Below are positions 41,388-64,000 of a DNA stretch of 64,000 bases, piece after piece. A model generated the notes under the pieces. The model ran no database searches and was not told the origin of the DNA. It was given only the letters and a program-made list of their open reading frames with translations. Within the stretch, counting starts at the first letter, position 1. Every line of letters starts with the position of its first letter. Source of the stretch: Candidatus Helarchaeota archaeon (GTDB lineage: Archaea > Asgardarchaeota > Lokiarchaeia > Helarchaeales > RDOG01); NCBI GenBank assembly GCA_019058315.1, contig JAHPZH010000002.1, forward strand, positions 288,001 through 352,000, given 5' to 3'. Both the position numbers and the translations under genes were made by a program.

Positions 41388-41876
41388 TTATTTTTCATAA
41401 GCTAGTACAGCAAACTCGCCTACAAATTTCTTCTTTTTCTGGTATGCTTCTTCATCTGGTGAGACCACCTTTAATGCTTCATGAGGACACACTTTTACAC
41501 ACTGAGGTTCTTTATAACCTATATCAGTACACATCTCACATTTATGGATATAACCTTGGTCACCTACTCCAATAGCACCAAAAGGACAAACTTTCACGCA
41601 TGTACGGCAGTGAAAACATTTATTGTAATCTATTTTTATAATATGAGTTTTTGGATCTCGAGATATTGCTTCAACAGGACAAGCAGAAATCGGTAAGCAG
41701 TCTTCACACTGCATACAAAAAACTGGATAATTATATTTCCAGCTAAAGTCAATAACTTCAATCCTAGAATTTATCATATTTACGTCCCCTGAATTTACTA
41801 TACTACATGCTAACATACAAAGTTTGCAATCTGTACACTTTTCGGGATCCGCCCAAATTATATTCTTTTCTGCCAT
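41388..41876 (-). CDS. 4x[4Fe-4S] ferredoxin-like subunit (partner of AOR)
   Basis: CTDCKLCMLAC, CMQC...CPV, CFHCRTCVKVCP, KCEMC...CVKVCP; ATG 41876 directly follows the AOR stop. Confidence 0.9.
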   Translation of the reverse strand: MAEKNIIWADPEKCTDCKLCMLACSIVNSGDVNMINSRIEVIDFSWKYNYPVFCMQCEDCLPISACPVEAISRDPKTHIIKIDYNKCFHCRTCVKVCPFGAIGVGDQGYIHKCEMCTDIGYKEPQCVKVCPHEALKVVSPDEEAYQKKKKFVGEFAVLAYEK

Positions 41877-41878
41877 TT

Positions 41879-45164: not shown

Positions 45165-45830
45165 CTAAGTATTTTCTAAAACTTCATATAATTTATTTAA
45201 TTTTTCTTTAAGATATTGATAATCTGCCAATTTTAATCCATTTTGATTAAGTAATTTCTCTATTCTCTTTATCTTATTAACAAGTTCATCGATCTTGGCT
45301 TTTCCAGGAAATAGGACTTCCCAAATCATAGAATTAAAAGTTTCCGTAACGTTATGTTTTGTTTTTGCTGAAGTTTCAATGTATGCATATTTAATTTTAT
45401 CTGCATATTCTTGCCCTTCTTTGGTTGATACCACTCTCTGGTCCACGAGATCTATTTTAGTCCCAACTAAAATCCCAGGAACAACCTTTTTGACCTGCTT
45501 TTTGATTTCATCGTGTAAATAAGCGAGGTCATCAAATGTTTTCCTTCTTGTAGTATCAAAAATTAGCATGACTCCACTCGTGCCCTTGAAATGGATCTTG
45601 TTATACCACCCGTTTATCCCTAAAAATGCTCTATAAACTATTTCCCAGAAAAAAAATCGAGCCTCATCATTTGTTCCTGGAATTTTAACCCTCTTATCAT
45701 ACATTTTTATCGCTAGTCGTGTAGGGGGAGGGTCAAAATTTCCGTAAATATATCTATTAAGGAGGTTACTCATTCCTACTTGAGGCTCTCCGACCAAAGT
45801 TATTTTATATATTAAGGTCTTTTCACTCAT
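45165..45830 (-). CDS. Degenerate Rab-like GTPase with helical C-terminal tail
   Basis: Rab fold, but G1 GEPQVGMS, G3 WEIV and G4 GTKID deviate; G5 ETSAK intact. Confidence 0.85.
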   Translation of the reverse strand: MSEKTLIYKITLVGEPQVGMSNLLNRYIYGNFDPPPTRLAIKMYDKRVKIPGTNDEARFFFWEIVYRAFLGINGWYNKIHFKGTSGVMLIFDTTRRKTFDDLAYLHDEIKKQVKKVVPGILVGTKIDLVDQRVVSTKEGQEYADKIKYAYIETSAKTKHNVTETFNSMIWEVLFPGKAKIDELVNKIKRIEKLLNQNGLKLADYQYLKEKLNKLYEVLENT

Positions 45831-48860: not shown

Positions 48861-49913
48861 TTAATCAATTGGATATTTACCGTATTTTTTTGGGGCGTTG
48901 ATTAATGCTTGAATATTCTCAACTGGGGTTCCTACCCCTATATCACAACCCGAACTTAAAATATACTTTCCATCTCTTGCAGCTTGCTCTATACAATGTT
49001 TTGCTTCAAGTTCTACTTCTTTAGGAGTTCCCCTCATCAATAATTGGGTGGGTACATTTCCTAATGTGATAATAAATTTCTTTCCAATCGCTTCCTTTAT
49101 TTTTTTAAGATCTACACGGTCACAGCTGAAGATAAATAATCTCGGTAATTTTACGATTTGGTCTACAATTTCTTCAGACTCACCACAGACGTGGAGTAAC
49201 CAGGCAGGAATATTGACTTTCCTTACGATTTTTTTTATATAAGGAACCACAAATTCTTTAAAATGTTCAGGTGAAATACAAGATACCGAAGCAGTTGGTT
49301 CAGTAATTCCGAATATATTAGGTAATCCTTGTTCTATCAATGCTTTATAATATTCAATAATTGTATCTGTACAAATATCAATGACCTTATGGACTAATTC
49401 TGGATTCCTTATTATATTTCTCATTAAATTCTCAGCTCCCATGACGGCTCCAGCAGCTGTAAAGGGTCCTTCTGAACCACCAAATGCAAAAATTTTTTCC
49501 TCATCAAATTTTTTAGAACAGATGTTTGCTGCTTCTAAATTAATAGGCATTCTTCCTTCTTTATAGGGATCTAAAACTTCCAGATTTTCCAATTTTTCAA
49601 TATCAGTAATACCTTTCTCAAGCATTGGAACGGAATCTATTGGATAACTTAATTCAGTTCCATATGCTTCACCAATTACATTCAAATCTAGACAGCTTAT
49701 CAAAAATTTTATCCCTAACTTTTTAGCTATGAATAATTGTGCTTGGGCTATCTTTTTACCATCTCGCATAATTTCAGGAGCTTTTATTCCACTCTTTTTG
49801 TAAAATTCATTCACAGAATAACCCAAAACTATTGGAACACTAGGCACATAAGCTCCTTCTTTTGCTAGCAATCCATCTGCAAGATCTTGTGAAAGCTGGA
49901 GGATTTCCATCAT
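48861..49913 (-). CDS. UROD/MtaA-family methylcobamide:thiol methyltransferase (MT2)
   Basis: EAYG, GRMP, GPFTAA, EPTAS, HVCG and SGCD zinc ligands. Confidence 0.85.
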   Translation of the reverse strand: MMEILQLSQDLADGLLAKEGAYVPSVPIVLGYSVNEFYKKSGIKAPEIMRDGKKIAQAQLFIAKKLGIKFLISCLDLNVIGEAYGTELSYPIDSVPMLEKGITDIEKLENLEVLDPYKEGRMPINLEAANICSKKFDEEKIFAFGGSEGPFTAAGAVMGAENLMRNIIRNPELVHKVIDICTDTIIEYYKALIEQGLPNIFGITEPTASVSCISPEHFKEFVVPYIKKIVRKVNIPAWLLHVCGESEEIVDQIVKLPRLFIFSCDRVDLKKIKEAIGKKFIITLGNVPTQLLMRGTPKEVELEAKHCIEQAARDGKYILSSGCDIGVGTPVENIQALINAPKKYGKYPID

Positions 49914-50551
49914 TTCGTTTTTACCTCCAAAATATGACGATTGAGAGTTTCAACTGCTGCATTTGCATCAGCTGCATACCAATCTGCTCCTATTTGAGCA
50001 GCAAATTTGTCATCAGGAGCAGCACCCCCTAATATAATTTTTACTTGGTCACGTAGCCCCTCTTTTTTGATCAATTTTACAAGATCACTCATACTATTTA
50101 ACGTTGAAGTCATCATAGTTGAAAGGGCAACTATATCTGCATTGTTATTTTTAATGCTTTCTATAAATTTTTCAGCTGGAACATTTCTTCCCAAATCAAT
50201 TACTTTAAAACCTGCTGCTTCTATAAAGCATTTCACGATATTTTTTCCTATATCATGAACATCGCCTCTAATAACACCTATAACGACCGTTGCTTTAGTT
50301 TCCATGCCTTTTAAATGTGGTTGGAGTACTTGGAATGCCGAATAGAACGCATCACTGCTTACTACAATTTCAGGTAGGAAATATTCTTTTTTTTCGTATT
50401 TTTCACTGACTTTTTTCATCCCTAGATTCAGACCATTTATAATAGCATCTTTAATGTCTATTTTTTGTTCTATAACCTTTTGTGCTAATTGAACGGCTTT
50501 CTCATCATCGCCTTCAATTACTGCTTCAGCTAATTCATCAATTATTGTCAT
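49910..50551 (-). CDS. Methyltransferase cognate corrinoid protein
   Basis: Helical cap, GDVHDIGKN, STMMTST, ILGGA; ATGA overlap with the MT2 gene. Confidence 0.93.
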   Translation of the reverse strand: MTIIDELAEAVIEGDDEKAVQLAQKVIEQKIDIKDAIINGLNLGMKKVSEKYEKKEYFLPEIVVSSDAFYSAFQVLQPHLKGMETKATVVIGVIRGDVHDIGKNIVKCFIEAAGFKVIDLGRNVPAEKFIESIKNNNADIVALSTMMTSTLNSMSDLVKLIKKEGLRDQVKIILGGAAPDDKFAAQIGADWYAADANAAVETLNRHILEVKTK

Positions 50552-50678
50552 TTGAACTACTCAAAATTATTCATTTCAATAATAAACCTTGACTAAAAAA
50601 TTACATAATTTTGTTAAATTAAGTTTATTTACGTCATGAACCTAATATAAAAAAACTAATTATATTGGACGTGATTTA

Positions 50679-52289
50679 TTGGCACAAACACTACAAATTA
50701 AAACTGACCTTAAAAATGTAAATGAAGCAATCGATAAAGCAGTTTCACAATATCCTAATAATATTGCAATTCGTTTTGGAGGAGAAGAAATTACATACAA
50801 GGCTTTCTCAGAAACTGTAATGCAGGTCGCTAGTGCTTTGAAAAAACTAGGTGTTAAAAAAGGAGATAAAGTTGCGGTAGTCTTGGCTAATGTTCCAGAA
50901 TATATTTATTCCTTCTATGGAGCATTAAGAATTGGGGCTGTCCTTGCTCCAATGATTAGAATGCTGAAACCTGATGAAATAGCATCTAATTGTACAGAAG
51001 CAGAATGTAAAGTGTTAATTATTTCTGATGACGGTAAAAGAACGGTGAAGAAAACAAGAAAACAAGATAAGCAATTAGAACATGTAATAATCGTTGGAGA
51101 TAAAGAAATAGAAGAAACAATAAATTGGAAAGATTTCATTGCAACGGGGACAAAGGATTATATTTCTCCTGGTGACATTGGTCTTGATGATTGGGCAACA
51201 ATTAATTTCACTAGTGGAACTACTGGAAAGCCTAAGGGAACAATTCATAGCCATAAGAATTATGTATATGCTGCCATAGGGCAACGCTTGGCTACAAAAG
51301 GAAGTCCTGAAGATTCTGCTGTTCTTGTCTTACCAATGTATCATATCTTTGGATTATCTGTTATGAATGCCAGTCTTAATATTGGTTCCATGTTAAATAT
51401 GCTTCCTGGATTTCTTGTTCAAGATGCGCTTAAAGAGCTTTGTCATCCTCGAACATCAACTTTTTACGCAGTTCCAGCAATGTATGCCATAATATTGGCG
51501 CAGGAGAATATTAATGAATTTGTTGGGAAGTTTAGTCCCAATTTAAAATTTGTTTTAAGTGGTGCTGCACCTTTACCAATGGGACTTATTAAGAGAATGG
51601 AAAAAATATTTATTGATACAAATGGTAGACAAATACCAATAGTAGAAGGTTGGGGCACAACGGAAGACGCAGTTTATGGTACTGTAAACCCGTGGGATGA
51701 GCCAGACAAAATTAAATATGGTTCAATTGGAAAACCATTCCCTGATTGCAAAATTTTAATAGTTGATGATGATGGAAAACCAGTTCCGAAAGGAGAACGT
51801 GGTGAAATGGCAGTACAAAATCCTGGAGTGATGCTTGGCTACTTAAATATGCCTAAAAAAACAAAAGAAGTATTAAAACCAGTGAAAGGAGAAGAAGGAA
51901 TCTGGTATTATACTGGAGATATTGGTATTATAGATGATGATGGTTATTATTACATTGTTGACCGTAAGAAAGATCTCATAATCGTCGGTGGAAGAAATGT
52001 AATTCCGAGGGATGTTGAGGAAGTTCTCTTTAAGCATCCAAAAATTCATGAAGCTACCGTTGTTGGAGCACCACACGAAAAGATGGGTGAAACAGTTCGG
52101 GCTATTATTGTTCTTAAAAAGGATGAGGAAATGACAGAACAAGAAGTTATGGATTATTGTAAGGAGAACTTAGCAGATTATAAATGTCCCAGGATAGTGG
52201 AATTCGAAAAAATGTTAAAGAAAACTTCAACTGGAAAAATCTTGAAGAAGGATTATCGAGCAAGCTTCAAGGAAATTAGAGGAGATTAA
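50679..52289 (+). CDS. Long-chain fatty acid--CoA ligase family (AMP-binding)
   Basis: FTSGTTGKPKG, EGWGTTE, TGDIG, DRKKD, TGKILK. Confidence 0.92.
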   Translation: MAQTLQIKTDLKNVNEAIDKAVSQYPNNIAIRFGGEEITYKAFSETVMQVASALKKLGVKKGDKVAVVLANVPEYIYSFYGALRIGAVLAPMIRMLKPDEIASNCTEAECKVLIISDDGKRTVKKTRKQDKQLEHVIIVGDKEIEETINWKDFIATGTKDYISPGDIGLDDWATINFTSGTTGKPKGTIHSHKNYVYAAIGQRLATKGSPEDSAVLVLPMYHIFGLSVMNASLNIGSMLNMLPGFLVQDALKELCHPRTSTFYAVPAMYAIILAQENINEFVGKFSPNLKFVLSGAAPLPMGLIKRMEKIFIDTNGRQIPIVEGWGTTEDAVYGTVNPWDEPDKIKYGSIGKPFPDCKILIVDDDGKPVPKGERGEMAVQNPGVMLGYLNMPKKTKEVLKPVKGEEGIWYYTGDIGIIDDDGYYYIVDRKKDLIIVGGRNVIPRDVEEVLFKHPKIHEATVVGAPHEKMGETVRAIIVLKKDEEMTEQEVMDYCKENLADYKCPRIVEFEKMLKKTSTGKILKKDYRASFKEIRGD

Positions 52290-52340
52290 CAACTTCTTTT
52301 TCTTTTTATTATTTTTCTTTTAAAAAGTTTCTTTTTTTTA

Positions 52341-52979
52341 TTATGGATTTTCAAATTTATTAATAATTAAATAGCTTATTCCAAGACTTAATGTTATTGT
52401 TCCCATAATTATCAATCCGGTCTCTATGTTAGGACCAGACTCCATTAGTAATGAAGCAATAACCACAAAATAAAATATTTCTCTTGAAGCTCCAGTCATC
52501 ATCCAATAAATAACTGCGCCAAATTTTAAAGATTCGTCAGAACGATGAGGTATTACGAATATTGCTACAAAAAATCCAATCCCAAGAATTATCAACATGA
52601 CCCCATTTACCTTTGTTTGTCTCTTCATATCCATTCTCATTAATCTTAAATGTGGTTTAGATGTTGGTTTTCTGAATATCCTAAAAATTAGACCTATGAC
52701 GATTATTAAAACTCCTAAAATTAATAAAAGAACTCCCATCTCAGCTAAATCACGAACAGCTGCTACAAAAGTTACAGTAAACCCCATCATACATATAGCA
52801 AAACCTATAAGAGGACACGCTGGTAAAAGAAAATCTCTTAAAACTTCAATCTTCATGTTATCTATTTCTTTAATATAATCCCTCTCAGGAAGATCTTCTT
52901 GACAATTCTCGCAAAATCCATTAAAATGCTCATTTTGACGTTCTGAAATTTCCTTTCCACATTTTCTGCAATATGGCAA
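52341..52979 (-). CDS. Zinc-ribbon membrane protein
   Basis: YCRKCG...FCENC followed by about 5 TM segments; SD GGTGGAG before TTG. Confidence 0.8.
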   Translation of the reverse strand: MPYCRKCGKEISERQNEHFNGFCENCQEDLPERDYIKEIDNMKIEVLRDFLLPACPLIGFAICMMGFTVTFVAAVRDLAEMGVLLLILGVLIIVIGLIFRIFRKPTSKPHLRLMRMDMKRQTKVNGVMLIILGIGFFVAIFVIPHRSDESLKFGAVIYWMMTGASREIFYFVVIASLLMESGPNIETGLIIMGTITLSLGISYLIINKFENP

Positions 52980-53104
52980 ATATCTCCACCTAATTTACCT
53001 TTATTTTATATTTTTTTATTTTTTTCTTTTGAGGCAATAAATACCTAATTCCTAGCTCTTACTATAATGCTTAAATAAAAATAAAAGATTTAGTAAATTT
53101 AATT

Positions 53105-53222
53105 GAGTATAGATGTCCACGAATTGTGGAATTCGAAAAAAATGCTAAAAAAGACATCCACTAGAAAAATCTTGAAGAAAGATTATAGGGCTAGCTTTAA
53201 AGCGATTAGAGGTGAAGAATAA
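53105..53222 (+). pseudogene. Diverged, frameshifted copy of the 3' end of the acyl-CoA ligase gene
   Basis: YRCPRIVEFEK(+1 A)MLKKTSTRKILKKDYRASFKAIRGEE* versus YKCPRIVEFEKMLKKTSTGKILKKDYRASFKEIRGD* at 52179-52289. Confidence 0.88.
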
Positions 53223-53288
53223 CGCATTTTTTAATTTAAAATAAATTTTTTATTTCCTTTTTTTCTTTATTATAATGGAAGTATTTTA

Positions 53289-53438
53289 ATGCTTAGACCA
53301 TTACCTGGTGGACCTAAAGAATGTATTTGCCCAATGTGCGGGGAAAGAGTTTTAGAAGCAAGAGGAATTCCTTGTAGATCCAAAAAATGTCCTAAATGTG
53401 GTTCTTACTTGATAAAATCTCCTCTAAAACGATTTTAA
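53289..53438 (+). CDS. 49-aa Cys-rich metal-binding microprotein (below the ORF-track cutoff)
   Basis: MLRPLPGGPKECICPMCGERVLEARGIPCRSKKCPKCGSYLIKSPLKRF; CxCPxCG...GxPCxxxxCPxCG motif. Confidence 0.8.
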   Translation: MLRPLPGGPKECICPMCGERVLEARGIPCRSKKCPKCGSYLIKSPLKRF

Positions 53439-53484
53439 TAAATTCATTGGGTCAATTTTTCCAATTTTATTGAGAAAAAATAGT

Positions 53485-54294
53485 TTATAAATTAATTATA
53501 TCAGGGGAGAGTCCAGTTCTAAAAAAAATTATTTTTTCATAAATTCTCTGAAACCAATTTATAGGTCTCCCTTCTAATAAATGAGCAAGAAAAGATTGAG
53601 GAGGATCTTTAGGTTTTGCTCCACCAACAAAATCTGCACCAGCTTTAAAAAATGGATCTGGAAACATAGTACAAGAAGGACCAATAATACCTCGCAATTT
53701 TGCATTTTTACAAGTATCTAACAACTCTTCTGTTGAATGATATAATAGACTAGCCCCAGTTGCAATAAGAATATCCGCTTCTGCCAGATCCTTAATTGAC
53801 TCCGCTATTGTTATCCTTTTATCATAGTCATCTTTTAAATTCTTTTCTAATACAATAACTTTTCCTGCATTTTCAACCCAATATTTTATATATGGTGTAA
53901 TATATCCGACTTGCGCTACAATATCCTTATCTTTTGGCTTAATTATCGCCATTGGGTCGTATTCTTCTCCAAAATAAATTTGTTTATTTTTCCAGAAATC
54001 AGTTTTATCAAACCACCACAATGAATACGCGTTGATTAGAGCTATCCCTAAAGAACGTTCTGCGTTTAGTGCCATGTTTGCTGCTTTTATTGCATTTAAT
54101 ATTTCGTTTTTATTATGTGGGACTTTAATATCACCTTCCATTTCTGGATCTATAAAACAAGCTCCACTATTTCCAGTTTCTAGTAAAACTGTAACAAAAT
54201 GACCGGTTTTTCCTACCGCAACAACATTTGGTGGTTCATTTTCCTTAAAAATCTTCGATATTAAATTAATTTCATTTTTTAAAATTTCAGACAT
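53485..54294 (-). CDS. DUF364-type Rossmann-like protein
   Basis: ERSLGIALINA, VAQVGY, VLEK, ILIATGASL, IGPS, VGG. Confidence 0.8.
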   Translation of the reverse strand: MSEILKNEINLISKIFKENEPPNVVAVGKTGHFVTVLLETGNSGACFIDPEMEGDIKVPHNKNEILNAIKAANMALNAERSLGIALINAYSLWWFDKTDFWKNKQIYFGEEYDPMAIIKPKDKDIVAQVGYITPYIKYWVENAGKVIVLEKNLKDDYDKRITIAESIKDLAEADILIATGASLLYHSTEELLDTCKNAKLRGIIGPSCTMFPDPFFKAGADFVGGAKPKDPPQSFLAHLLEGRPINWFQRIYEKIIFFRTGLSPDIINL

Positions 54295-54309
54295 AAATAA
54301 AACTCCATT

Positions 54310-55191
54310 TCAAATTATTTTTATAAAAAATATTTCTAATTGACAACTTCCATTAAGTTTAAAAAGCCAATAATCAAAGATTGAAATACCATAGCCCCAA
54401 AAATTATAATCTCGTATATATGGGCAACACATCACGAAAAACACGGAAATACTAAATAATATAGTTAAAATTAGAACCAGCACATCTAAAATAGAGATTG
54501 AGATTTCATGAAAATAGGTTCTTTCGCCTTTAATACGAAATCCTCTTGCTTGAAGGGCCATCGCCATATTATTAGTATTTAAGATGAAATTAAATAATAT
54601 AGTAGTTAATAAAACTTTCAAATTTGATAATCTGGTTCTGATACCACCATGTGTAATACTAATTCCCTTTGCCTCCATAGCCATTTGAATTTCATCACTT
54701 TCCATTAGAATCAGTGGTAAAAAATAAAGCGCAAGACTAACCATAAAAGAAATTACATACGGAATTTTCATTTTTGTTAATGCTAAAAGAAAATCCTTAC
54801 GATTAGTAGTCATAGCAAATATAGAACCTGCAAAAATGAGAATCATAAATCTAAAACTAATCAAAAGACCATAAAAAATACCATCCCAACTTAGAAGTAT
54901 CCAACCTCCAAAAATCGGGATATTTTGGGGTATTATGTAAATCGGGAAAAGAGGATTATAATATAATATAGTTTGAAAAAAAATAATTGGAATAATCATT
55001 GAAATAAGCTTTCTTAAATACATAAATGGGCTGAATTTTTTGGATTTTAAAAAGATGAAAAAAAGAAATTCAGAAATAAAAATTACAAATAAGATAATAA
55101 GATTCTGTACTAAAACAGAAATTGTCGAAACACAAAGTAAAATAATGAACTTAACTCGTGGATCCGTACTTTTTTCTGAATTAGTTTGCAT
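54310..55191 (-). CDS. ecfT: ECF transporter T component
   Basis: DPRVK, AMEAKG and ALQARG coupling motifs. Confidence 0.92.
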   Translation of the reverse strand: MQTNSEKSTDPRVKFIILLCVSTISVLVQNLIILFVIFISEFLFFIFLKSKKFSPFMYLRKLISMIIPIIFFQTILYYNPLFPIYIIPQNIPIFGGWILLSWDGIFYGLLISFRFMILIFAGSIFAMTTNRKDFLLALTKMKIPYVISFMVSLALYFLPLILMESDEIQMAMEAKGISITHGGIRTRLSNLKVLLTTILFNFILNTNNMAMALQARGFRIKGERTYFHEISISILDVLVLILTILFSISVFFVMCCPYIRDYNFWGYGISIFDYWLFKLNGSCQLEIFFIKII

Positions 55192-56005
55192 TTTTGAGTT
55201 TTTCCTCTAAATAATCAATTAAATTTTCATAATTAGTTAAAGATGGAAAATTTTTGAATTTTTTAAGTTGGTCAAATAATTTTAGCATGAATGGTAATCT
55301 CAAACCCACTTCAAGAAGTCTCTTAGGATCTTCTCTCAATTTAGTTATAGAATCATCAAAAATTTTTCTTCCTTTATCTAATATTATTATTCTATTACAA
55401 AAATTAAGAATTGAGTCAATATCATGTGAGATCAAAATTAAAATGTGGTCTTTTTTTAATTTGATTAGAAATGATAATAAATTTTCTTTTCTATTGTAAT
55501 CTAAACCAGCAAATGGTTCATCTAATATTATGACCTTTGGTCTGCTAGCTAAAATAAAACCTAAATTTACTCTTTTTTTTTCTCCTTGGCTTAATCTTCT
55601 TGGATGAAACTTTTGAATTGTATATAACCCTAAAAATCTTAAAATATTCTTTGTAATTCGTTCAAGGTTTTCTAAAGACACTTTTTTTCGTTTTAAACCA
55701 ATAGAAACCTCATCATAAATACTACTAGTGCAAAGCATTACATCTGGGTTCTGAAATAAATAACCAACTTGTTCAGAAATATTAAAAATGGATAATTTTT
55801 TATAATCTATTTCATTTAATAGCATTTTACCGGAATTAGGTTTGATAAATCCTGCAATTATTTTTGCTAAAGTTGACTTTCCTGCTCCATTTGGACCAAT
55901 TAACCCAATAACTTCATTTTTTTCAATATCTAAATTTAAATCCTGAATTGCGGGAATTTTACCACGATATTTAAAATTAATATTTTCAATTTTTATTATC
56001 GACAT
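55181..56005 (-). CDS. ecfA2: ECF transporter ATPase
   Basis: GPNGAGKST, FQNPD, LSQGEKKR, LDEP, SHD. Confidence 0.92.
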   Translation of the reverse strand: MSIIKIENINFKYRGKIPAIQDLNLDIEKNEVIGLIGPNGAGKSTLAKIIAGFIKPNSGKMLLNEIDYKKLSIFNISEQVGYLFQNPDVMLCTSSIYDEVSIGLKRKKVSLENLERITKNILRFLGLYTIQKFHPRRLSQGEKKRVNLGFILASRPKVIILDEPFAGLDYNRKENLLSFLIKLKKDHILILISHDIDSILNFCNRIIILDKGRKIFDDSITKLREDPKRLLEVGLRLPFMLKLFDQLKKFKNFPSLTNYENLIDYLEEKLKNAN

Positions 56006-56847
56006 ATAATATCACTTAAAATACTGATTCCATCAGAAAATTTTACTGGAATCTCAAAATCAAAATCAATTCTTTTCTTCAAATCTAAAAATAATTTCGT
56101 TATAGGTGGAGGGATTAATTTATATTTATTTAAAAATTCAATATTTGAAAAAATCATATTTGGTTTATCGTTACCGATGATTTGTCCTTTATCTAAAACG
56201 ATGATACGTTCTGCTAATTCGCCTAAAATTTCTGCATTATGTGAGACTAAAATTATTGTAGTTCCTGATTGATGAATTTTTTTTAAGATATTGAAAATCC
56301 GGTTTGAATAAATAGGATCAAGATATGAAGTAGGTTCATCTAAAACTAATATTTGTGGTTTCATTATTAATATGGAAGCTAAAGATACTAATTGTTTTTG
56401 CCCACCTGATAGTGCTGTAGTATCTCTATTAATTAATTCAGTAATGCCAATTTCTTCTAGAATTATATTTAACCTTGTAGACATTTCTTTTTTAGGAATA
56501 GCTAAATTTTCCAACCCAAAAACAATCTCACTTTCTACATCAGGAGAAAAGATTTGGAAGTCTGGATTTTGAAAGAGAAATCCTACTTTGTCTGCAAAAT
56601 CTTGAATTTCATAATCAAGTGTATTATTACTAAGAACTTCTACTGATCCCTCGAAATCTCCTTTAAAAAAATGAGGAACTAATCCATTTAATAAATATAT
56701 TAATGTAGATTTTCCAGAACCAGATTCTCCCATAACTCCAATAAATTCCCCTTCATTAATTTCAAGATTAATATTTACTAAATTCAAAATTGGTGATGTT
56801 GCATATCTAAAATTGACATTTTTTAATTTTATTATTTTATATACCAT
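55996..56847 (-). CDS. ecfA1: ECF transporter ATPase
   Basis: GESGSGKST, FQNPDFQ, FGLEN, LSGGQKQ, LDEPT. Confidence 0.92.
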   Translation of the reverse strand: MVYKIIKLKNVNFRYATSPILNLVNINLEINEGEFIGVMGESGSGKSTLIYLLNGLVPHFFKGDFEGSVEVLSNNTLDYEIQDFADKVGFLFQNPDFQIFSPDVESEIVFGLENLAIPKKEMSTRLNIILEEIGITELINRDTTALSGGQKQLVSLASILIMKPQILVLDEPTSYLDPIYSNRIFNILKKIHQSGTTIILVSHNAEILGELAERIIVLDKGQIIGNDKPNMIFSNIEFLNKYKLIPPPITKLFLDLKKRIDFDFEIPVKFSDGISILSDIICR

Positions 56848-56867
56848 GGTAATCGAAAAAAACTGTT

Positions 56868-57452
56868 TTATATATTAATTTCAACACTAATTACATACTT
56901 TGCACAAAGTCTGCCGTTATAATCATCTCCAAATTTAAATATACAATATGCTTGACTTGTAATAGTCCGAACTGGTCCTTCTCCACCTAACTCTTTTTTT
57001 AATATTGGCAGACCATCTTCTAAATAGACTAATAGAATTTCTTCGTTCCAAGTATCAATATCAGCTTTTGGATAACTTATTGCCCAACCATCTTGTGCTT
57101 TTATTGAAACTTCAGAATATGTTGACACGTTCATTATATCATAGACTAAATGTTTCAAAGAAAAGCCCTTATAAGCATGTGTCGATTCACCTGTACTTGT
57201 CTTATAAACAAAGGCTTTTGTTACATTCGAATGACGATCGAATTCTTGAATTGTAAAAGTTCTAGAACTATTAACTGCAGATCCTCCAATTTTAACCGTC
57301 CATAAAAAAGGTAATAATAATAAATTACGTTGTGTGCTCTGGGTTTGATTTTTTTGATATTGATAATAATAAAAATAATAGATTAATGAAGGAACCAAAA
57401 TTAAAATTAGAACAATATTAATTATTAAAAAAATTTTTACATCTCTCTTCAA
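56868..57452 (-). CDS. Membrane-anchored molybdopterin-oxidoreductase-fold protein (paralogue 3)
   Basis: N-terminal TM; YKGFSL, AQDGW, LVYLEDG...GPVR...CAKYVISVEI. Confidence 0.75.
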   Translation of the reverse strand: MKRDVKIFLIINIVLILILVPSLIYYFYYYQYQKNQTQSTQRNLLLLPFLWTVKIGGSAVNSSRTFTIQEFDRHSNVTKAFVYKTSTGESTHAYKGFSLKHLVYDIMNVSTYSEVSIKAQDGWAISYPKADIDTWNEEILLVYLEDGLPILKKELGGEGPVRTITSQAYCIFKFGDDYNGRLCAKYVISVEINI

Positions 57453-57477
57453 TTCTATCTTGCCTTTATCGTTTAAT

Positions 57478-58095
57478 TTAAGAATTTATTTGAAAAGCTA
57501 TAACATGCCTTACACACCATATGCCATTAAATTGACCCAAATTCCCATATTTTGTAATAGTATAATTCTGGGTAACAACATTATATACGGGTTTATAATA
57601 ATCAGTTAAATTTTGCCCCTCTCTTTTATATGCTAAGAAAAGATCATCCCAAAATACTGGATTATCAATGTCAGTTTGTTGAAAAGTCATAGAATATCCA
57701 TCAGAGGCTATGATATTTACGCTAGAATATGAACTTACATTCATTATATCATAAATTAAACGTCTAAATGGAATTCCCGTATAATTGACAATATCACTAA
57801 CTAAAACACTTCCCTCTTTTCGTGTTATATTAACATATCTAGTTAAATTTGACCATGTAACAAAATCTGAGTAATTCAATTTTAGAATATCTACTGCAGA
57901 TCCATTTACTGTTAAAGGGAAATCTGGTATATTCTCATAAGTACCTGAATTTTGCTTCAAAGTTATAAGTAATAATTCATATGGTTGATTATTTGGATTT
58001 ACTAATATGTACCCAATTGGTATAACTATTCCAATTCCTATTATTATTGAAATTATTGATATTTTAATTGAATTTTTCAATTTTCTTCTTCTCAT
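57478..58095 (-). CDS. Membrane-anchored molybdopterin-oxidoreductase-fold protein (paralogue 2)
   Basis: N-terminal TM; VNGSAV, YTGIPF, ASDGY, LAYKREG, CVRHVIAFQI. Confidence 0.75.
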   Translation of the reverse strand: MRRRKLKNSIKISIISIIIGIGIVIPIGYILVNPNNQPYELLLITLKQNSGTYENIPDFPLTVNGSAVDILKLNYSDFVTWSNLTRYVNITRKEGSVLVSDIVNYTGIPFRRLIYDIMNVSSYSSVNIIASDGYSMTFQQTDIDNPVFWDDLFLAYKREGQNLTDYYKPVYNVVTQNYTITKYGNLGQFNGIWCVRHVIAFQINS

Positions 58096-58125
58096 TAATT
58101 AAAAAAATTTAAAAAAAATAAAAAA

Positions 58126-58734
58126 TTAAGTTATTTCAATAGTTTCTACCAGTCTTACAGTGTTAAAACCATTAAAGTTAGTACCAAAAACTGCAAGGCT
58201 GAATTCCTTAGTAAACACTGATCTTACAATTTCTTGACTTGTTAGATAATGACCATCCCTTTTATATGCTAACATAATATCATCTGCAAAGGTGGCATTA
58301 TCGATATCTGTTTGATTATATGTCTTAGCCCAAATGGGATTGTCTGATGGAATTAATGTAATGTTTGTATAAGAAGTTACATTAGCAATATCGTAGATCA
58401 AGTGAGTAAAAGGAATTCCAACCCAAAATTCTGTATAATTCAGCAGATCTGCAGCTCCACCCCACCTTTTTTCCATGACAACAATATATCTAGCAAGATA
58501 TGAGTGTTGTTCGAAATCTTCTAAAGTCAAATTAAACTCAACCGGAACTGCTGAACCATTAACTTTAATATTAATTAACGGTGGTGAAGGTGTTTCTTGC
58601 ATCATTGCAAGAGCAATGACAATTGGTCCAGTATCAACTCGACTTTGTATATTCAGAAAATAAAAAGTTGGAACTATTATTCCTGTTGCAACAACAAAAC
58701 CCAAGATAAAACTTATTCCAATATTCTTATCCAT
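58126..58734 (-). CDS. Membrane-anchored molybdopterin-oxidoreductase-fold protein (paralogue 1)
   Basis: N-terminal TM; VNGSAV, WVGIPF, LAYKRDG, VRLVETIEI. Confidence 0.75.
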   Translation of the reverse strand: MDKNIGISFILGFVVATGIIVPTFYFLNIQSRVDTGPIVIALAMMQETPSPPLINIKVNGSAVPVEFNLTLEDFEQHSYLARYIVVMEKRWGGAADLLNYTEFWVGIPFTHLIYDIANVTSYTNITLIPSDNPIWAKTYNQTDIDNATFADDIMLAYKRDGHYLTSQEIVRSVFTKEFSLAVFGTNFNGFNTVRLVETIEIT

Positions 58735-58747
58735 TCATTTTCACCTC

Positions 58748-59365
58748 CTATTCCAATATTTCGTAATATTTATCTGTTTTAGCACAAACAGGGCATAACT
58801 TCTTCCCATCTATCTCCTCAACTGCGTAATCTAATATACTTTCGCCACAATTTTCACATAAAAATTCATTATGCTTAATTGATGCATTTTCAATTAATGA
58901 ATTATCCGTAATTTTTACCTTTTTAACAATACAAATCTCCTGCATCTTCATATCTAAAATTTCTTTTCCAAAATTTTTAGTTATTTCCAAAATCTTTTTT
59001 CTATCATTTATTTCAAATAATTCTCTGATTTTATTGGATATTTCAGTCATTCTTTCTTGAAAATTCGATTTTACTGTAACCCTAACTGCATTTCCTGTTT
59101 TTTTATCTAGCATTGTTAGAGCTAATTTACCATAATTCTTTATTATTAAATCTCCACAGCCATATGTAGCTTTTGAGACTACTTGAATACCGTCCATAAA
59201 ACAATGTCTTGTTTCTGATATAACAAATAAATCCTTAATTTTTGGATTTTTAATACCAAGTTTATCTAATGCTGCTAAAGTTAATTTAATTCCAAGAGCA
59301 TAAGGAGCACTTATTACTCCATCATGAAAATATCTTGCAAATTCTAACATTTTGTTCTCGTTCAT
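58748..59365 (-). CDS. FmdE family protein with C-terminal zinc finger
   Basis: FHDG, ETRHCFMDGIQV, YGKLA, CENCGE...CPVCA. Confidence 0.85.
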   Translation of the reverse strand: MNENKMLEFARYFHDGVISAPYALGIKLTLAALDKLGIKNPKIKDLFVISETRHCFMDGIQVVSKATYGCGDLIIKNYGKLALTMLDKKTGNAVRVTVKSNFQERMTEISNKIRELFEINDRKKILEITKNFGKEILDMKMQEICIVKKVKITDNSLIENASIKHNEFLCENCGESILDYAVEEIDGKKLCPVCAKTDKYYEILE

Positions 59366-59383
59366 AGCGATAACTCGCGAACT

Positions 59384-60103
59384 TTATAATAGATTTTCTT
59401 TAATTTCTTCCTCACTATCTAGATGTAAGTCATACCATTTATCATCTTTATCTAATGTTAATATTTGAACTTGGGATAGTTTATCATATTCAATAACTAT
59501 TCCTCGAGCGATTAACCCTCCTAAACCTCCTGATATAAATGCAATAATAATAACAATTATTAAAAGAATCATTGGAAGATCTAAAATAACAATATTTACT
59601 AAATAAGTGCCAACAACATTTGCCGCTGCCCCCTCAAAATAGTAGCCAATGTAATTTCCTTCGCCTAATTTATGCATAATAAATGCAACTATATCAACTG
59701 CTATTCCTGGGGCTGAATATGTTAGGAATGAAAAAATTCCATGAGATCCGAATGGCATCAATAAAATCATAAATGTTTGAATAACTGCTGCGATAGTTGC
59801 TGCTCCATTTTTTTTAGTTAATTCCCTTGCTAATATTAACCACATCATATATAATCCACCTGCAACCGAACCTCCTGGTATATTTACAGGTCGTAATATA
59901 AAGGATAAAGCAGGTAGAATTAATTGTTTTGAGCCTATTCCCAAAGCTGCCATTAGAGGGATAATGATAAAATCTTTAATTTCAAATTTTGATTTCTTTT
60001 TCTTTATTTTTTTATCAATTTTTTCTTCATTATTTCCATTTTGTTCATTAATTCTGTCTTTTTCATTAATTTGGCTCTTTTCATTAATTCGACTTTCTTC
60101 CAA
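59384..60103 (-). CDS. ECF transporter S (substrate-capture) component
   Basis: About 6 TM segments, PGGSVAGGLYMMW, GSHG, SGGLGG; first gene of the operon containing ecfAAT. Confidence 0.85.
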   Translation of the reverse strand: MEESRINEKSQINEKDRINEQNGNNEEKIDKKIKKKKSKFEIKDFIIIPLMAALGIGSKQLILPALSFILRPVNIPGGSVAGGLYMMWLILARELTKKNGAATIAAVIQTFMILLMPFGSHGIFSFLTYSAPGIAVDIVAFIMHKLGEGNYIGYYFEGAAANVVGTYLVNIVILDLPMILLIIVIIIAFISGGLGGLIARGIVIEYDKLSQVQILTLDKDDKWYDLHLDSEEEIKENLL

Positions 60104-60140
60104 TTTTTATCAAATCCAAAAATGAATGCGAATAAGATTT

Positions 60141-60178
60141 TTTAAACCGATATGAATAATTATACATATCAGTTTAAA
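60141..60178. promoter_or_regulatory. 38-bp palindrome between the divergent ECF operon and mobB; ModE-box-like operator bounded by TTTAAA boxes
   Basis: TTTAAACCGATATGAATAATTATACATATCAGTTTAAA; 17 of 19 symmetric positions pair. Confidence 0.7.
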
Positions 60179-60231
60179 TTCTTTACTCTAAATGTAAAAA
60201 TTAAAAATATGATAAGGTGAAATGATCTATC

Positions 60232-60972
60232 ATGTTAACGAAATATTTTTCAATTGTAGGTTATTCAGATTCTGGAAAAACTTTTGTAATTGAGAAAATA
60301 ATTAAACATCTAGTTAAAAAAGGATATAAAGTAGGAGTATGTAAATATATCCATCATTCAGGATTTGGCATTGATATTCCAGACAAGGATACAACAAAAT
60401 TTTATGAAAATGGAGCTAAAATCATTTCATATGTTTCTCCAGATGCAAATGGTATAATAAATATTGAAAAAGAAGGCACAAGTTCAACTTTAAGAAATAT
60501 TGAGAATAAAGTTGATTATTTAATCCTAGAAGGATTTAGAAATTTAACTGGAGTGCCTAGAATGGCAATTATTAAGGAGGAATCAGACCTAAAAAGCCTT
60601 TTAGACGAATTTACTATAGGAATAACCAGTCATCTAATAGATCTATCCAAACATAATTTATTTATCAAGGATGAGAATATCCCATCTTTTGTTGAGAAAA
60701 GAGCTCTTCCACCTATGACTTCATTAAATTGTCAAAAATGTGGCTATGATTCATGCAAGGCATTCTACAAAGCTTTACTAATGGAAAAAGAAGATAGATC
60801 TAAATGTGTTCTTCAAATTAGAAATATAAAATTATTTGTTAATAAAAAATTACTCCTAATTAACCCATTTGTAGAAGATGTGTTTAGAAATGTAATATCG
60901 GGTATTGTTGAGACCTTACAAAGACCAGATGAAAAAATTAATTCAATTGATATCAATATTAAAATTGAATAA
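60232..60972 (+). CDS. mobB: Molybdopterin-guanine dinucleotide biosynthesis protein MobB with FeS domain
   Basis: GYSDSGKT, KYIHH, DKDT, ILEGF, LNCQKCGYDSC...C, NPFV tail. Confidence 0.88.
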   Translation: MLTKYFSIVGYSDSGKTFVIEKIIKHLVKKGYKVGVCKYIHHSGFGIDIPDKDTTKFYENGAKIISYVSPDANGIINIEKEGTSSTLRNIENKVDYLILEGFRNLTGVPRMAIIKEESDLKSLLDEFTIGITSHLIDLSKHNLFIKDENIPSFVEKRALPPMTSLNCQKCGYDSCKAFYKALLMEKEDRSKCVLQIRNIKLFVNKKLLLINPFVEDVFRNVISGIVETLQRPDEKINSIDINIKIE

Positions 60973-61051
60973 AAATTAAAATTTTGTAATAATATTGAAT
61001 TAATATTATATTTTTTACTAAATTTTTAAAAATAAATGGAAGATCCATAAA

Positions 61052-62182
61052 ATGCCCAAAGGAATTTTTATATTTAGTAATGGTGCTCAAGATATTACAA
61101 AAGTTGAAGCTAAATATCCCGAAGATTTAATAATATCAGATAAAATTCTTAATATAATAAAATTATCTCATGAAATTAAAGAAGGTTATAGTTTTTCAAC
61201 CATAATTATTGGTAAATCTAAATTTGCATCTCTTTATACAGGTCCGGAATTTAATCATTTTATTAATTTATATTTGACCGATGAGGATGATTCTGTAATT
61301 TTTGAAAATGCACTCTCATATTATAGTAATAAAATAATGAAGAACATCTCAACTGATAAATTTGAAGAAGTTCTTCCAGGAATTTACGAAGAAATTTCAT
61401 TATATCCAACTTTTGATGAAGAACAAAAATTAGCAATTGCTTATAATAATGAAATTAAACGTTTAATTATGCAAAAATTAATTGTAAATGCATTTATTTC
61501 AAAAAAAGATTTATTAGATTGGTTAAAAGAAGAATTACAAATAAAAGGGCTCAATATAGATCCTATTCTTGATTCCTTAATGAAACTTGATTTAGTAAAA
61601 AAATCGGGTATTAAAGACATATCAGATGAATATGTATTTTGTACAGGGGATTTTTTTATAACCCGTTTACCACCGTCAGAAATAGTTGAATTAGTTGATA
61701 AAAAAAAGATACCTGAATCAATAGCTTCGGAATTTTTTTCTAAAGTAAAGGATTTTTTTCAAAATTATTCACCTACATCAGAAGATGCAGAAATAATAGC
61801 AGAAATAATTAGTGATTTAGATTGTTACAATACTTTAAAATTATTAAGATTATCTCCAGCAACTAAGAAAGGGTTTTCAAGTGTAGGAAATAAAATAAAA
61901 GATTTGGATTTAACTCTACAGAAATTTCAATCAAACAAAATTTCAGATATAATAAAGGATGAAAAGGGTCGTGAATATCATTTCTTAATAACTGATATTC
62001 GTATAAAAAAATTCTTTCCAGAATATTTACTGAAAATAATATTAAAAAGTTATAATGAGAAATCTGTTCCTAATTCCGTTGTATTGGATAATTTGGAACT
62101 TTTAATAAATACATATGATGATGAAATGGAACGTATTAAAGAAGAAGAGAAAAGGAAAGAAATGGAAGGAGAAAATGAATAA
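61052..62182 (+). CDS. Asgard-type hypothetical protein (possible N-terminal longin/uDENN-like domain plus winged helices)
   Basis: MPKGIFIF...EAKYP start and later wHTH-like segments; family assignment is tentative. Confidence 0.7.
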   Translation: MPKGIFIFSNGAQDITKVEAKYPEDLIISDKILNIIKLSHEIKEGYSFSTIIIGKSKFASLYTGPEFNHFINLYLTDEDDSVIFENALSYYSNKIMKNISTDKFEEVLPGIYEEISLYPTFDEEQKLAIAYNNEIKRLIMQKLIVNAFISKKDLLDWLKEELQIKGLNIDPILDSLMKLDLVKKSGIKDISDEYVFCTGDFFITRLPPSEIVELVDKKKIPESIASEFFSKVKDFFQNYSPTSEDAEIIAEIISDLDCYNTLKLLRLSPATKKGFSSVGNKIKDLDLTLQKFQSNKISDIIKDEKGREYHFLITDIRIKKFFPEYLLKIILKSYNEKSVPNSVVLDNLELLINTYDDEMERIKEEEKRKEMEGENE

Positions 62183-63266
62183 TGAGAGGACGTTTAAATT
62201 GAGAAGAAAAACCAAAATATTATTCATCGCAAATCTTTTAATCATTTTTATGATTTTTTCAATTCAAAACTCATCTAATACTTGCACTTTGGAGAATTTT
62301 CAGAAGCAATATGCTTATAATGGTATAGATAAGTCAAAAGAAGTAAAATTAATCTATAATGCTGATAATGCGACTCTTATAAACGGAAGTTTAGTCAGTC
62401 TTTATGAGATCGATTTATATAGATTTGAAAGCTGCAATATCACTTTCAATTATACTGATGCAATAAATAATAAGACCATTGATGGTGCAGATGCAAATTT
62501 TACGTGGTATAAAAAAAATGATCCATCTGTTATATACAATGGGACTTTAATAAATAGTAGCAGTGGGATTTACATTCTAGATTTTAATACTTCATCAAGA
62601 GAAATTGGAGATTATATTATTGATGTTTATATTAAAATTACTAATTATACAAAACCGACTTTAATTGTTAAATTGTCGATCAACCGTAGATCCACTAAGT
62701 TATTAACTCTAACAGGTACAACCCTTAAAATCGAAAGAGGGACCATATTCCCTATTCTATTTTTCTTAGAGGATTCTATAAATGGAACAAATTTGGAGGA
62801 TTTTCCTCTTAAATGGATTATGGGCTATTTTTCAGGTGAATTGATTTCTTTAAAAGATGGGTTATATATGTTTCCTATTCCTACTTCATTATTTGAAATA
62901 GGCTCTAATATTTTTATTTTAGACTCATCATCCGTCAATGACTATAATATAGAAAGTTCAACTGTAATACTTGATATAACATGGGAAAAAATATTGGGAA
63001 TAGATGCTCCAATATTTTACGCAATTTTAATTATATCTATAATAGTTTGTGTTTGTATTTTGTTATATATTTTTATAAAAAGATTATCTAAGCCAAAAGC
63101 TATTAGAAAAATTCATGATAGCATTAAAAAGATTGAAAAAGATATAAGACCAATATCCATTACTGAAATAAGGAGTCGTGAGGAGATCTATAACAGTTTA
63201 TTCAAAAAAGACTGGGAAAAAATTAATAAACACCCCAAAATTACTCCTAAAAAACCAGTTGATTAA
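62175..63266 (+). CDS. Surface protein with Ig-like beta repeats and C-terminal TM anchor
   Basis: N-terminal hydrophobic segment, N/T-rich beta domains (GIYILDFNT, GLYMFPIPT), many NxS/T sequons, TM near the C-terminus; start moved to ATG 62175. Confidence 0.8.
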   Translation: MNNERTFKLRRKTKILFIANLLIIFMIFSIQNSSNTCTLENFQKQYAYNGIDKSKEVKLIYNADNATLINGSLVSLYEIDLYRFESCNITFNYTDAINNKTIDGADANFTWYKKNDPSVIYNGTLINSSSGIYILDFNTSSREIGDYIIDVYIKITNYTKPTLIVKLSINRRSTKLLTLTGTTLKIERGTIFPILFFLEDSINGTNLEDFPLKWIMGYFSGELISLKDGLYMFPIPTSLFEIGSNIFILDSSSVNDYNIESSTVILDITWEKILGIDAPIFYAILIISIIVCVCILLYIFIKRLSKPKAIRKIHDSIKKIEKDIRPISITEIRSREEIYNSLFKKDWEKINKHPKITPKKPVD

Positions 63267-63313
63267 AGATATTAAATATTAAAAAAAAATTACTTAATTT
63301 ATTGTGATTATAA

Positions 63314-63721
63314 TTGTCAAAATGGTACGAGGAAGAAGCAATAAAAGAATGGATTGAAATTGCAATAAAACTTCACAGAAATTTTATCAATATCGGACTT
63401 GCACTTGGTATTAGGGCTTCCGTTGTTGGGATGAAAGCGTTAGGGGTCGATAGGAGTAAAATTGAGAAGGCAGAAGTGTGGGGAGTAAAGTGTTTTGGTG
63501 AAGCTGTTGAAGTAATGACTGGTTGTAAACTAATTAGGGAAAAATTAGTTTTTCATGAAATATATGAACCACCACTTAAACCAAAATTAATTTTATGGAC
63601 AATTAATAATAAAGCTATATTAGAATTACTAGCAAGAGAATTTAAGAACGAAGATGAAGTTTTTAACGCTCCTGAAGAAGAAGTTTTTGAAAATGTGACA
63701 ATATCAAATATAAATTTGTAA
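63314..63721 (+). CDS. Short FmdE-like protein
   Basis: KLH...GLALGIRA...KCFGEAVEVMTGC. Confidence 0.75.
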   Translation: MSKWYEEEAIKEWIEIAIKLHRNFINIGLALGIRASVVGMKALGVDRSKIEKAEVWGVKCFGEAVEVMTGCKLIREKLVFHEIYEPPLKPKLILWTINNKAILELLAREFKNEDEVFNAPEEEVFENVTISNINL

Positions 63722-63916
63722 GTCCAGTCATAAGAAAATTCCAAATAAACATCTTAGTCTCTAATGATTTCAATTACTTTATCAATACCAAAAGCTTTAA
63801 TTGAAATTTAAATTTGTTTTTTAGTAAAAAAAATATGAAAATTTTTTGATTTGGTGAACTTTGGCTAAGTTTAAAGAATAAAATTTTCCTTTTTTATTTT
63901 ATTCCATACCAAATCT

Positions 63917-64000
63917 TTAATTTTGAAGTTTTTCAAGCTCTTCGAATAATTTTATATTTTTAGGAATGTCTTTCATTGAATTACCATAATAGGCATACTG
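63917..64000 (-). CDS. Possible 3' end of a gene entering from beyond the window
   Basis: Open frame QYAYYGNSMKDIPKNIKLFEELEKLQN*. Confidence 0.4.
   Translation of the reverse strand, partial: QYAYYGNSMKDIPKNIKLFEELEKLQN

Follow-up and report, generated by a model that had tools for sequence, protein, structure and literature searches.

The locus described here raises the question of what an energy-coupling factor (ECF) transporter carries when its operon also encodes three surface proteins related to molybdenum-cofactor (Moco) enzymes. It lies in a stretch of 64,000 nucleotides of the genome of a Candidatus Helarchaeota archaeon (contig JAHPZH010000002.1, positions 288,001 to 352,000), referred to below as the window. 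Nine densely packed genes run along the minus strand from 60103 to 53485 (open reading frame (ORF) listing combined with Pfam and NCBIfam scans), and encode an ECF S component, an FmdE-family protein, three paralogous proteins with the fold of sulfite oxidase (SUOX) and PruR, the ATPases EcfA1 and EcfA2, the coupling component EcfT and a DUF364 protein. A gene for MobB fused to an iron-sulfur (FeS) domain is divergent from them. The system is probably a salvage importer for a molybdopterin-type cofactor of tungsten or molybdenum, with a supplementary role in this host, an interpretation to which we give a probability of about 0.6. It is favoured because related operons lie behind riboswitches of the Moco and tungsten-cofactor (Tuco) class, because S components occur fused to SUOX-like domains, because the module is linked to MobB-FeS, because it is found in carriers of the tungsten enzyme AOR that have no cofactor pathway, and because it and MoaC exclude each other. 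An initial prediction made from the DNA letters alone (the sequence-only reading) had already proposed pterin-fold receptors feeding an ECF importer. The riboswitches, fusions, MobB linkage and phyletic pattern support this core idea, whereas the host is not an auxotroph.

The three paralogues (58126–58734, 202 aa; 57478–58095, 205 aa; and 56868–57452, 194 aa; all on the minus strand) share 30–39% pairwise identity. The molybdopterin-binding pattern that had been reported in them is weak when single sequences are compared with Pfam PF00174 (E 0.03, E 0.1 and no match, all missing the cut-off). Single sequences and a 7-sequence paralogue profile likewise gave chance matches only against PDB sequences. 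The pattern is recovered at the level of fold and family: many orthologues pass PF00174, paralogue 1 scores 103 bits against the family profile, and the 52-sequence family profile that was needed to search the PDB matched SorA (E 3e-9) and PruR 7kom (E 1.3e-8). Foldseek, which the sequence-only reading had recommended, was run with an AlphaFold 2 (AF2) model of paralogue 2, the middle one (pLDDT 72.9). The PruR structures 7kom, 7kp2, 7kos and 7rkb, the last of which was solved with neopterin, ranked first, and the Moco domains of SorA, SoxC, YedY and sulfite oxidase came next; the matches in both groups had E 1e-4 to 1e-3 and probability 1.00. The family has motifs in common with SUOX proteins (G-V-P-L, A-x-D-G-Y, L-A-Y-x-x-D-G and G-G-x-G-P), and the GGEGP of paralogue 3 is the counterpart of the hG.PlR motif of SUOX enzymes. 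The paralogues belong to the SUOX fold superfamily of Moco-binding domains, together with PruR and the sulfite oxidases. A close homologue of paralogue 2 comes, according to its source name, from a Promethearchaeota (Asgard) archaeon.

Catalytic SUOX-family molybdoenzymes have a Mo-ligating Cys at the tip of a beta-hairpin. It could not be located in the paralogues at the outset, and it is indeed absent from them and from the family alignment, where no conserved Cys column was seen. Paralogue 1 is devoid of Cys, the Cys residues of paralogues 2 and 3 are confined to the vicinity of the C-terminus, and 52 of 120 small family members are without Cys beyond residue 35. In PruR, a Pro-Trp motif occupies the site of the Cys in sulfite oxidases, and the pterin is stacked by a conserved Tyr (PMC11194511). 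The stretch of the present family that aligns with the Pro-Trp motif consists of polar residues, and all three paralogues retain the pterin-stacking Tyr (in the LAY motif). A single N-terminal transmembrane (TM) segment anchors each of them, and N-X-S/T sequons number seven, eight and four in paralogues 1, 2 and 3, a density of 2.1–3.9 per 100 aa; for the cytoplasmic proteins encoded at the locus it is 0–0.5. Lipobox-like N-termini are seen in some bacterial homologues. Because they combine the loss of the Mo-ligating Cys with an N-terminal anchor and an enrichment in sequons, the paralogues are predicted, from sequence and model, to be non-catalytic, membrane-anchored, surface-exposed proteins of pterin-binding fold. 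Elsewhere in the genome there is a 189 aa Oxidored_molyb protein (G000:C1:441156-441746; L106:4154-4723) that scores 140 bits against PF00174, does not lie beside any transporter and is distinct from the three paralogues without the ligand Cys.

The S component (59384–60103, minus strand; 239 aa) matches PF09819 with 30.7 bits (cut-off 25.2), carries a Lys/Glu/Asn-rich N-terminal extension ahead of its membrane core and is present in a single copy in the genome. Eighty loci were gathered via the S component alone; neighbours were counted over 87 loci with hidden Markov models built from the retrieved sequences. All 95 S component homologues belong to PF09819. Adjacent to the S gene are SUOX-like genes in 83 of the 87 loci, EcfA in 77 and EcfT in 76. 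A survey of the neighbourhoods of this S family for cofactor genes had been proposed, and it returned MobB (about 250 aa, mostly with the FeS domain) in 60 of the clusters; a surface NPP-type phosphodiesterase (52 loci), a small kinase-like protein (34) and a surface protein binding flavin mononucleotide (FMN; 23) also recur. The carriers include Heimdall- and other Asgard archaea, Bathyarchaeia, many Clostridia and Dehalococcoidia. FmdE and DUF364 are in the cluster only in the window and its near relative (L010/L011). In L010, the DUF364 gene is upstream of the S gene, as against after EcfT in the window, and two SUOX-like genes are inside the operon with one more on the opposite strand. In one of the bacterial clusters, the MobB gene is immediately followed by a group II intron domain (RF02001, L026:10753-10876).

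A covalent link between importer and SUOX-like domain is found in a metagenome contig (P0099/L006), where an S-SUOX fusion stands beside a MobB-methyltransferase fusion, and in four Asgard families (L099, L101–L103), where the gene order is a two-domain SUOX-like protein, the S-SUOX fusion, and then a fused EcfAA′ and EcfT. The number of SUOX-like domains per system ranges from 1 to more than 10. A predicted complex of the S component with paralogue 2 scored 0.00, a value that counts neither for nor against binding.

Rfam scans placed the Moco riboswitch RF01055 upstream of the operon, on the operon strand, in 15 of 18 bacterial loci, 42–45 nt before the first gene in the two loci where the gap was mapped (L042 and L060); no riboswitch for thiamine pyrophosphate (TPP) was reported in the same 18. 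Stem P3 is missing in both of the printed riboswitch alignments, and variants without P3 have been proposed to sense the tungsten cofactor (Regulski et al., PMC2408646). Among the exceptions that this study left unexplained are P3-less RNAs of Syntrophomonas wolfei that stand ahead of 'sulphite oxidase' genes (PMC2408646); these are probably copies of the operon described here. The riboswitch also precedes the operon in three genomes without MoaA, MoaC and MoeA (G006, G007 and G027). It cannot by itself separate cofactor from metal, because molybdate and tungstate transporters share Moco riboswitches. In some bacterial operons the first gene after the riboswitch encodes a surface protein with an FMN-binding domain (PF04205; L042:6734-7300 and L012:2681-3187), which hints at an extracellular redox step, such as holding the pterin reduced.

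The distribution of the importer relative to the biosynthetic pathway was followed by whole-genome searches of the genomes behind 30 loci, most of them metagenome-assembled genomes (MAGs). AOR was found in 29 of the 30, and MoaC, MoaA and MoeA in 16 each. The three pathway proteins were jointly missing from 13 carriers, among them two isolates and the complete genome of Ca. Bathyarchaeum tardum (CP122380). AOR is present in twelve of these 13; the remaining one has formate-dehydrogenase-type enzymes of the Mo/W-bis(pyranopterin guanine dinucleotide) type, one of which is the product of the gene immediately behind the operon. Anaerosalibacter sp. ND1, which lacks MoaA, MoaC and MoeA, has a gene for a molybdopterin oxidoreductase (PF00384, plus Fe4S4 and dinucleotide-binding domains; L060:13974-16058) that directly follows EcfT. 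Neither bare metal nor cyclic pyranopterin monophosphate (cPMP) could supply the pathway-less carriers by known routes, because MoeA is missing as well. MoaE (PF02391) was undetectable or marginal in 25 of the 30 carriers, and it was not detected in the 13 pathway-less ones. Because the 25 include Clostridia with MoaA, MoaC and MoeA, the MoaE search is uninterpretable and was kept out of the argument; either a divergent molybdopterin (MPT) synthase or a real pathway gap would give this result.

A wider survey covered 151 Asgard genomes that were at least 80% complete and had been sampled without regard to the importer. The S type was found in 30 of them, MoaC in 68 and AOR in 147, with up to 16 AOR copies per genome. 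Only one genome, that of the window, has both the S type and MoaC. In 29 the S type is present and MoaC was not found, and all 29 have AOR; 67 have MoaC with no S type found, and in 54 neither was found. The two are also disjoint inside families (S type against MoaC, 9 versus 9 in family f8, 13 versus 1 in f13 and 5 versus 1 in f22), in counts where related genomes are not independent. Complementarity within families is the pattern expected if uptake replaces synthesis, and having no apparent ability to make the pterin cofactor is the majority state among the sampled Asgard genomes.

On the cofactor-import reading, the ECF importer would scavenge molybdopterin-type cargo from the anoxic community, and that cargo is most likely the W or Mo pterin cofactor itself, or a metal-free or dephosphorylated form of the pterin. 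The three anchored, probably N-glycosylated ectoproteins, for which fold and extracellular location are supported, would bind the pterin outside the cell and would then hand it to the S component, as the S-SUOX fusions suggest. Homology to solved ECF transporters indicates that EcfT and EcfA1/A2 would power import by ATP hydrolysis. Genomic context points to MobB-FeS, joined in the host lineage by the zinc-ribbon FmdE protein and DUF364, as the candidate that would receive or chaperone the cofactor in the cytoplasm, for delivery to apo-enzymes such as the 15 AOR paralogues of the host. The DUF364 family has been linked to Mo/W transporters (PMC2954201) and shows cofitness with modABC in M. maripaludis (bioRxiv 10.1101/2024.03.05.583561). 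These links fit a role in Mo/W metabolism and do not separate metal from cofactor; that DUF364 and FmdE families are otherwise tied to Mo/W handling was counted in favour.

Several observations weigh against a cofactor importer, and the first group concerns the host itself. Its assembly (5.8 Mb in 12 contigs, with the window on contig C5) encodes MoaA, MoaC and two MoeA on contig C7 and MoaE on contig C1, and both contigs match that of the window in composition (tetranucleotide correlation 0.999). The sequence-only reading had asked whether moaA and moaC are lacking; both are present, and Moco auxotrophy of the host was rejected on the strength of this gene set. The genome also has two loci with a solute-binding protein and ModB/WtpB-like components of ATP-binding cassette (ABC) transporters, and, since these stand beside a de novo pathway, the host has no need of salvage. 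With 15 AFOR_N (AOR) matches in the genome, salvage would here supplement a large demand from tungsten enzymes, not cover an auxotrophy. The NPP enzyme, small kinase and riboswitch that accompany bacterial versions also have no counterpart in the archaeal locus of the window, and the C-terminal Trp that stacks pterin is kept in paralogue 2 only.

Other points on the same side are more general. Free Mo/W cofactor is very labile, and we know of no demonstration of an extracellular pool of it. The carrier genomes are mostly MAGs, with related genomes that are not independent of one another. Of the 151 Asgard genomes, 54 have neither MoaC nor the S type, and among these, 27 of 35 sampled genomes of family f2, which belongs to the window's class, carry a different SUOX-membrane fusion. 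That protein, of about 350–360 aa, begins with a membrane anchor, continues as a SUOX-like ectodomain and ends in a four-helix membrane domain (L108–L112); it is found in genomes without MoaC and without the PF09819-type S component, and, of the five loci retrieved, L110 and L112 also have EcfA and/or EcfT beside it. FmdE and DUF364 accompany transporters of Mo/W and of other metals elsewhere. PruR proteins bind small pterins in a cleft described as too short for Moco (PMC11194511), and Moco riboswitches also govern molybdate and tungstate transporters (PMC2408646).

Alternatively, the operon might import tungstate, molybdate or a metal chelate, with the SUOX-like proteins binding the oxyanion and FmdE, DUF364 and MobB handling the metal. 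The company that FmdE and DUF364 keep elsewhere agrees with this, as does the common placement of mod and tup operons under Moco riboswitches, and MobB falls in a GTPase class that includes metallochaperones. Yet bare metal is of no use to the 13 carriers that have none of MoaA, MoaC and MoeA, the host already has its two ModB/WtpB-type ABC loci, and FmdE and DUF364 are missing from 85 of the 87 loci. The SUOX fold, moreover, binds pterin, and the metal-ligand Cys is precisely the part that has been lost. Metal import is unlikely, if the best placed of the alternatives.

Two further proposals retain a pterin and change its identity, and each is improbable to a similar degree. In the first, the cargo is cPMP or a pterin breakdown product from which the cell finishes the cofactor. 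A Moco riboswitch would fit this equally well, no other intermediate of the Moco pathway is as stable as cPMP, and MoaA and MoaC, both missing from the pathway-less genomes, are the two enzymes that make it. The same 13 genomes are also without MoeA, the enzyme of metal insertion, however, and what the SUOX fold binds in related enzymes is mature Mo-MPT. In the second, PruR-like ectoproteins would capture a pterin unrelated to Moco, such as neopterin, monapterin or a precursor of folate or methanopterin. PruR proteins are the best structural matches, one of them solved with neopterin, and are likewise Cys-less. Against such a cargo, the riboswitch is of the Moco/Tuco class and not of the tetrahydrofolate or another class, the partner protein is MobB and not an enzyme of folate or pterin metabolism, the system is complementary to MoaC and found in genomes lacking the Moco pathway, and the Pro-Trp motif and the DcpA partner of PruR are absent.

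That the paralogues are surface redox enzymes or adhesins which share an operon with the ECF genes by coincidence is very improbable: SUOX-like domains do form long tandem arrays in large surface proteins, and FMN-binding surface proteins occur at some bacterial loci, but the Mo-ligating Cys is absent, the adjacency to the S gene holds in 83 of 87 loci and covalent fusions with the S component exist.

The locus encodes a group I (dedicated) ECF transporter. The S component, EcfT (54310–55191, minus strand; PF02361 CbiQ, E 8.6e-26) and two ATPases are encoded in one operon. EcfA1 (55996–56847, minus strand) matches PF00005 and has TIGR04520 and TIGR04521 as best NCBIfam matches (E 1e-68 to 1e-69), and EcfA2 (55181–56005, minus strand) matches PF00005 and TIGR04520 (E 6e-58); the two genes overlap by 10 nt. 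The nine-gene arrangement and the divergent mobB noted in the sequence-only reading agree with the ORFs, intergenic gaps within the operon being −11 to +30 nt and the spacer to the MobB-FeS gene 128 nt. The FmdE-family protein (58748–59365, minus strand; PF02663, E 8.8e-26) ends in a C4 zinc ribbon (zf-dskA_traR, E 3e-4; Cys 170, 173, 191 and 194) and is predicted to be cytoplasmic, with no TM segment. The final gene of the operon (53485–54294, minus strand) encodes the DUF364/DUF4213 protein, with an enolase-N-like and a Rossmann-like part (PF04016, E 3.6e-22; PF13938). On the plus strand, the MobB P-loop GTPase with its Cys-rich FeS domain (60232–60972; PF03205, 75.9 bits, E 3.5e-21; PF04060, E 1e-7) scores 77.7 bits against TIGR00176 (cut-off 76.2), which places it in the MobB family, and its gene is the sole mobB of the genome. 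The importer, the three paralogues and mobB are each found at one locus only; second copies of FmdE and DUF364 lie away from transporters.

A likely consumer of the cofactor is encoded nearby: the W-dependent AOR that had been noted about 10 kb away (41879–43723, minus strand; AFOR_N and AFOR_C, E 1e-76 and 1e-114), a member of a tungstopterin enzyme family, lies 9.8 kb from the 3′ end of the ECF operon and beside a ferredoxin gene (41388–41891). Within 52000–64000 of the window, neither RF01055 nor any other Rfam family was matched at E values up to 1. A scan for sigma-70 promoters and terminators gave no enrichment over shuffled sequences and does not apply to an archaeon. No RNA dataset containing the stretch is listed, and the only sequencing run with all of it is a sediment metagenome that is possibly the source of the DNA.

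The plus-strand row begun by mobB continues with two ORFs of no recognised family (61052–63266), one encoding a soluble protein of 376 aa and the other a protein of 383 aa that is probably a surface glycoprotein, judging by a TM segment at either end and its 12 N-glycosylation sequons. The row ends with a 135 aa FmdE-like ORF (63314–63721; PF02663, 24.4 bits, barely over the cut-off), so that FmdE-type genes are found on both flanks of the system. Adjoining the ECF operon on its other side (48861–52289) are genes for a URO-D-like methyltransferase, a B12-binding corrinoid protein and an AMP-binding ligase, and the same trio adjoins the operon of the near relative (L010, 4777–9185). A gene for a Ras/Roc-family small GTPase, of a kind typical of Asgard archaeal genomes, is at 45165–45830 on the minus strand.

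To our knowledge, the textbook position is that no cell can use Mo/W enzymes without making the labile pterin cofactor itself, and we know of no prokaryotic importer. A published description of one was not found in the literature searched, the coverage of which is incomplete. A broader statement would hold jointly that intact W/Mo-pterin cofactor is traded in anoxic sediments, that this system is the first dedicated prokaryotic importer, that MoaC-less Asgards are fed by import while the present host is both producer and scavenger, and that FmdE, DUF364 and MobB-FeS form an undescribed line for receiving and inserting the cofactor; taken together, we judge this to be evenly balanced. If it is true, the 83 of 151 Asgard genomes (more than half) that keep several AOR genes and lack MoaC would live on imported cofactor. 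A dedicated uptake system would in itself account for tungsten enzymes without a pathway in many anaerobes, among them most of the Asgard archaea sampled and a Bathyarchaeon in culture. It would place the Mo/W cofactor with the vitamins whose exchange shapes syntrophic communities and limits cultivation, would represent a new ECF transporter design with extracytoplasmic receptor proteins, and would give a functional context to four poorly understood families (Cys-less SUOX domains, MobB-FeS, FmdE and DUF364). The hypothesis can be tested directly in cultured Clostridia that carry the operon.

Among known systems, the group I ECF transporters YkoEDC, BioMNY and CbiMNQO have the same set of S, T and two A ATPase components in a single operon. 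The sequence-only reading had named a grouping of the S component with a characterised vitamin family as evidence against it, and no such grouping was seen: YkoE (5edl) shares PF09819 with it, but at E 0.33 and 13.8 bits in profile comparison it is a remote relative, and the neighbours are SUOX-like and MobB genes rather than the thiamine genes expected of a YkoE-type thiamine or hydroxymethylpyrimidine transporter. Many vitamin ECF systems are controlled by a riboswitch for their cofactor, as are the bacterial orthologues of this operon, here of the Moco/Tuco type and not TPP. Classical ECF transporters have no extracytoplasmic accessory proteins, whereas in the present system SUOX-like ones are obligatory and a MobB-FeS partner is present.

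PruR (Agrobacterium Atu3496; 7kos, 7kom, 7kp2 and 7rkb) resembles the paralogues in being a small, exported, single SUOX domain with the ligand Cys lost and the Tyr kept. It differs in having a cleaved signal in place of a TM helix anchor, in a truncated beta-hairpin that appears long in the model of paralogue 2, and in sequence (identity only 14–18%). PruR signals to DcpA, a diguanylate cyclase-phosphodiesterase; the partner here is a transporter, and scans of the window genes found no GGDEF/EAL gene in the locus. The sulfite oxidase enzymes (SorA 2blf, chicken sulfite oxidase 1sox and YedY/MsrP 1xdq) have a homologous Moco-binding domain and shared motifs, including G-G-x-G-P-x-R, and the paralogues differ from them in lacking the Mo-ligating Cys, the dimerisation or haem domain and the twin-arginine (Tat) signal. 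Because they are anchored to the membrane outside the cell without the catalytic features of a sulfite oxidase, the paralogues are taken to be binders rather than enzymes.

ModABC, TupABC and WtpABC serve the same Mo/W enzyme economy, are under Moco riboswitch control in bacteria and in some cases have DUF364. They are, by contrast, type I ABC transporters with a receptor of the periplasmic-binding-protein fold, and they carry bare oxyanion, which cannot explain the pathway-less carriers. ECF-CbrT, for cobalamin, and BtuCDF have another cargo, another S family and no SUOX-like accessory proteins. They nevertheless provide the precedent for the import proposed here, that of a whole metal-organic cofactor of about 1 kDa which prokaryotes take up instead of making.

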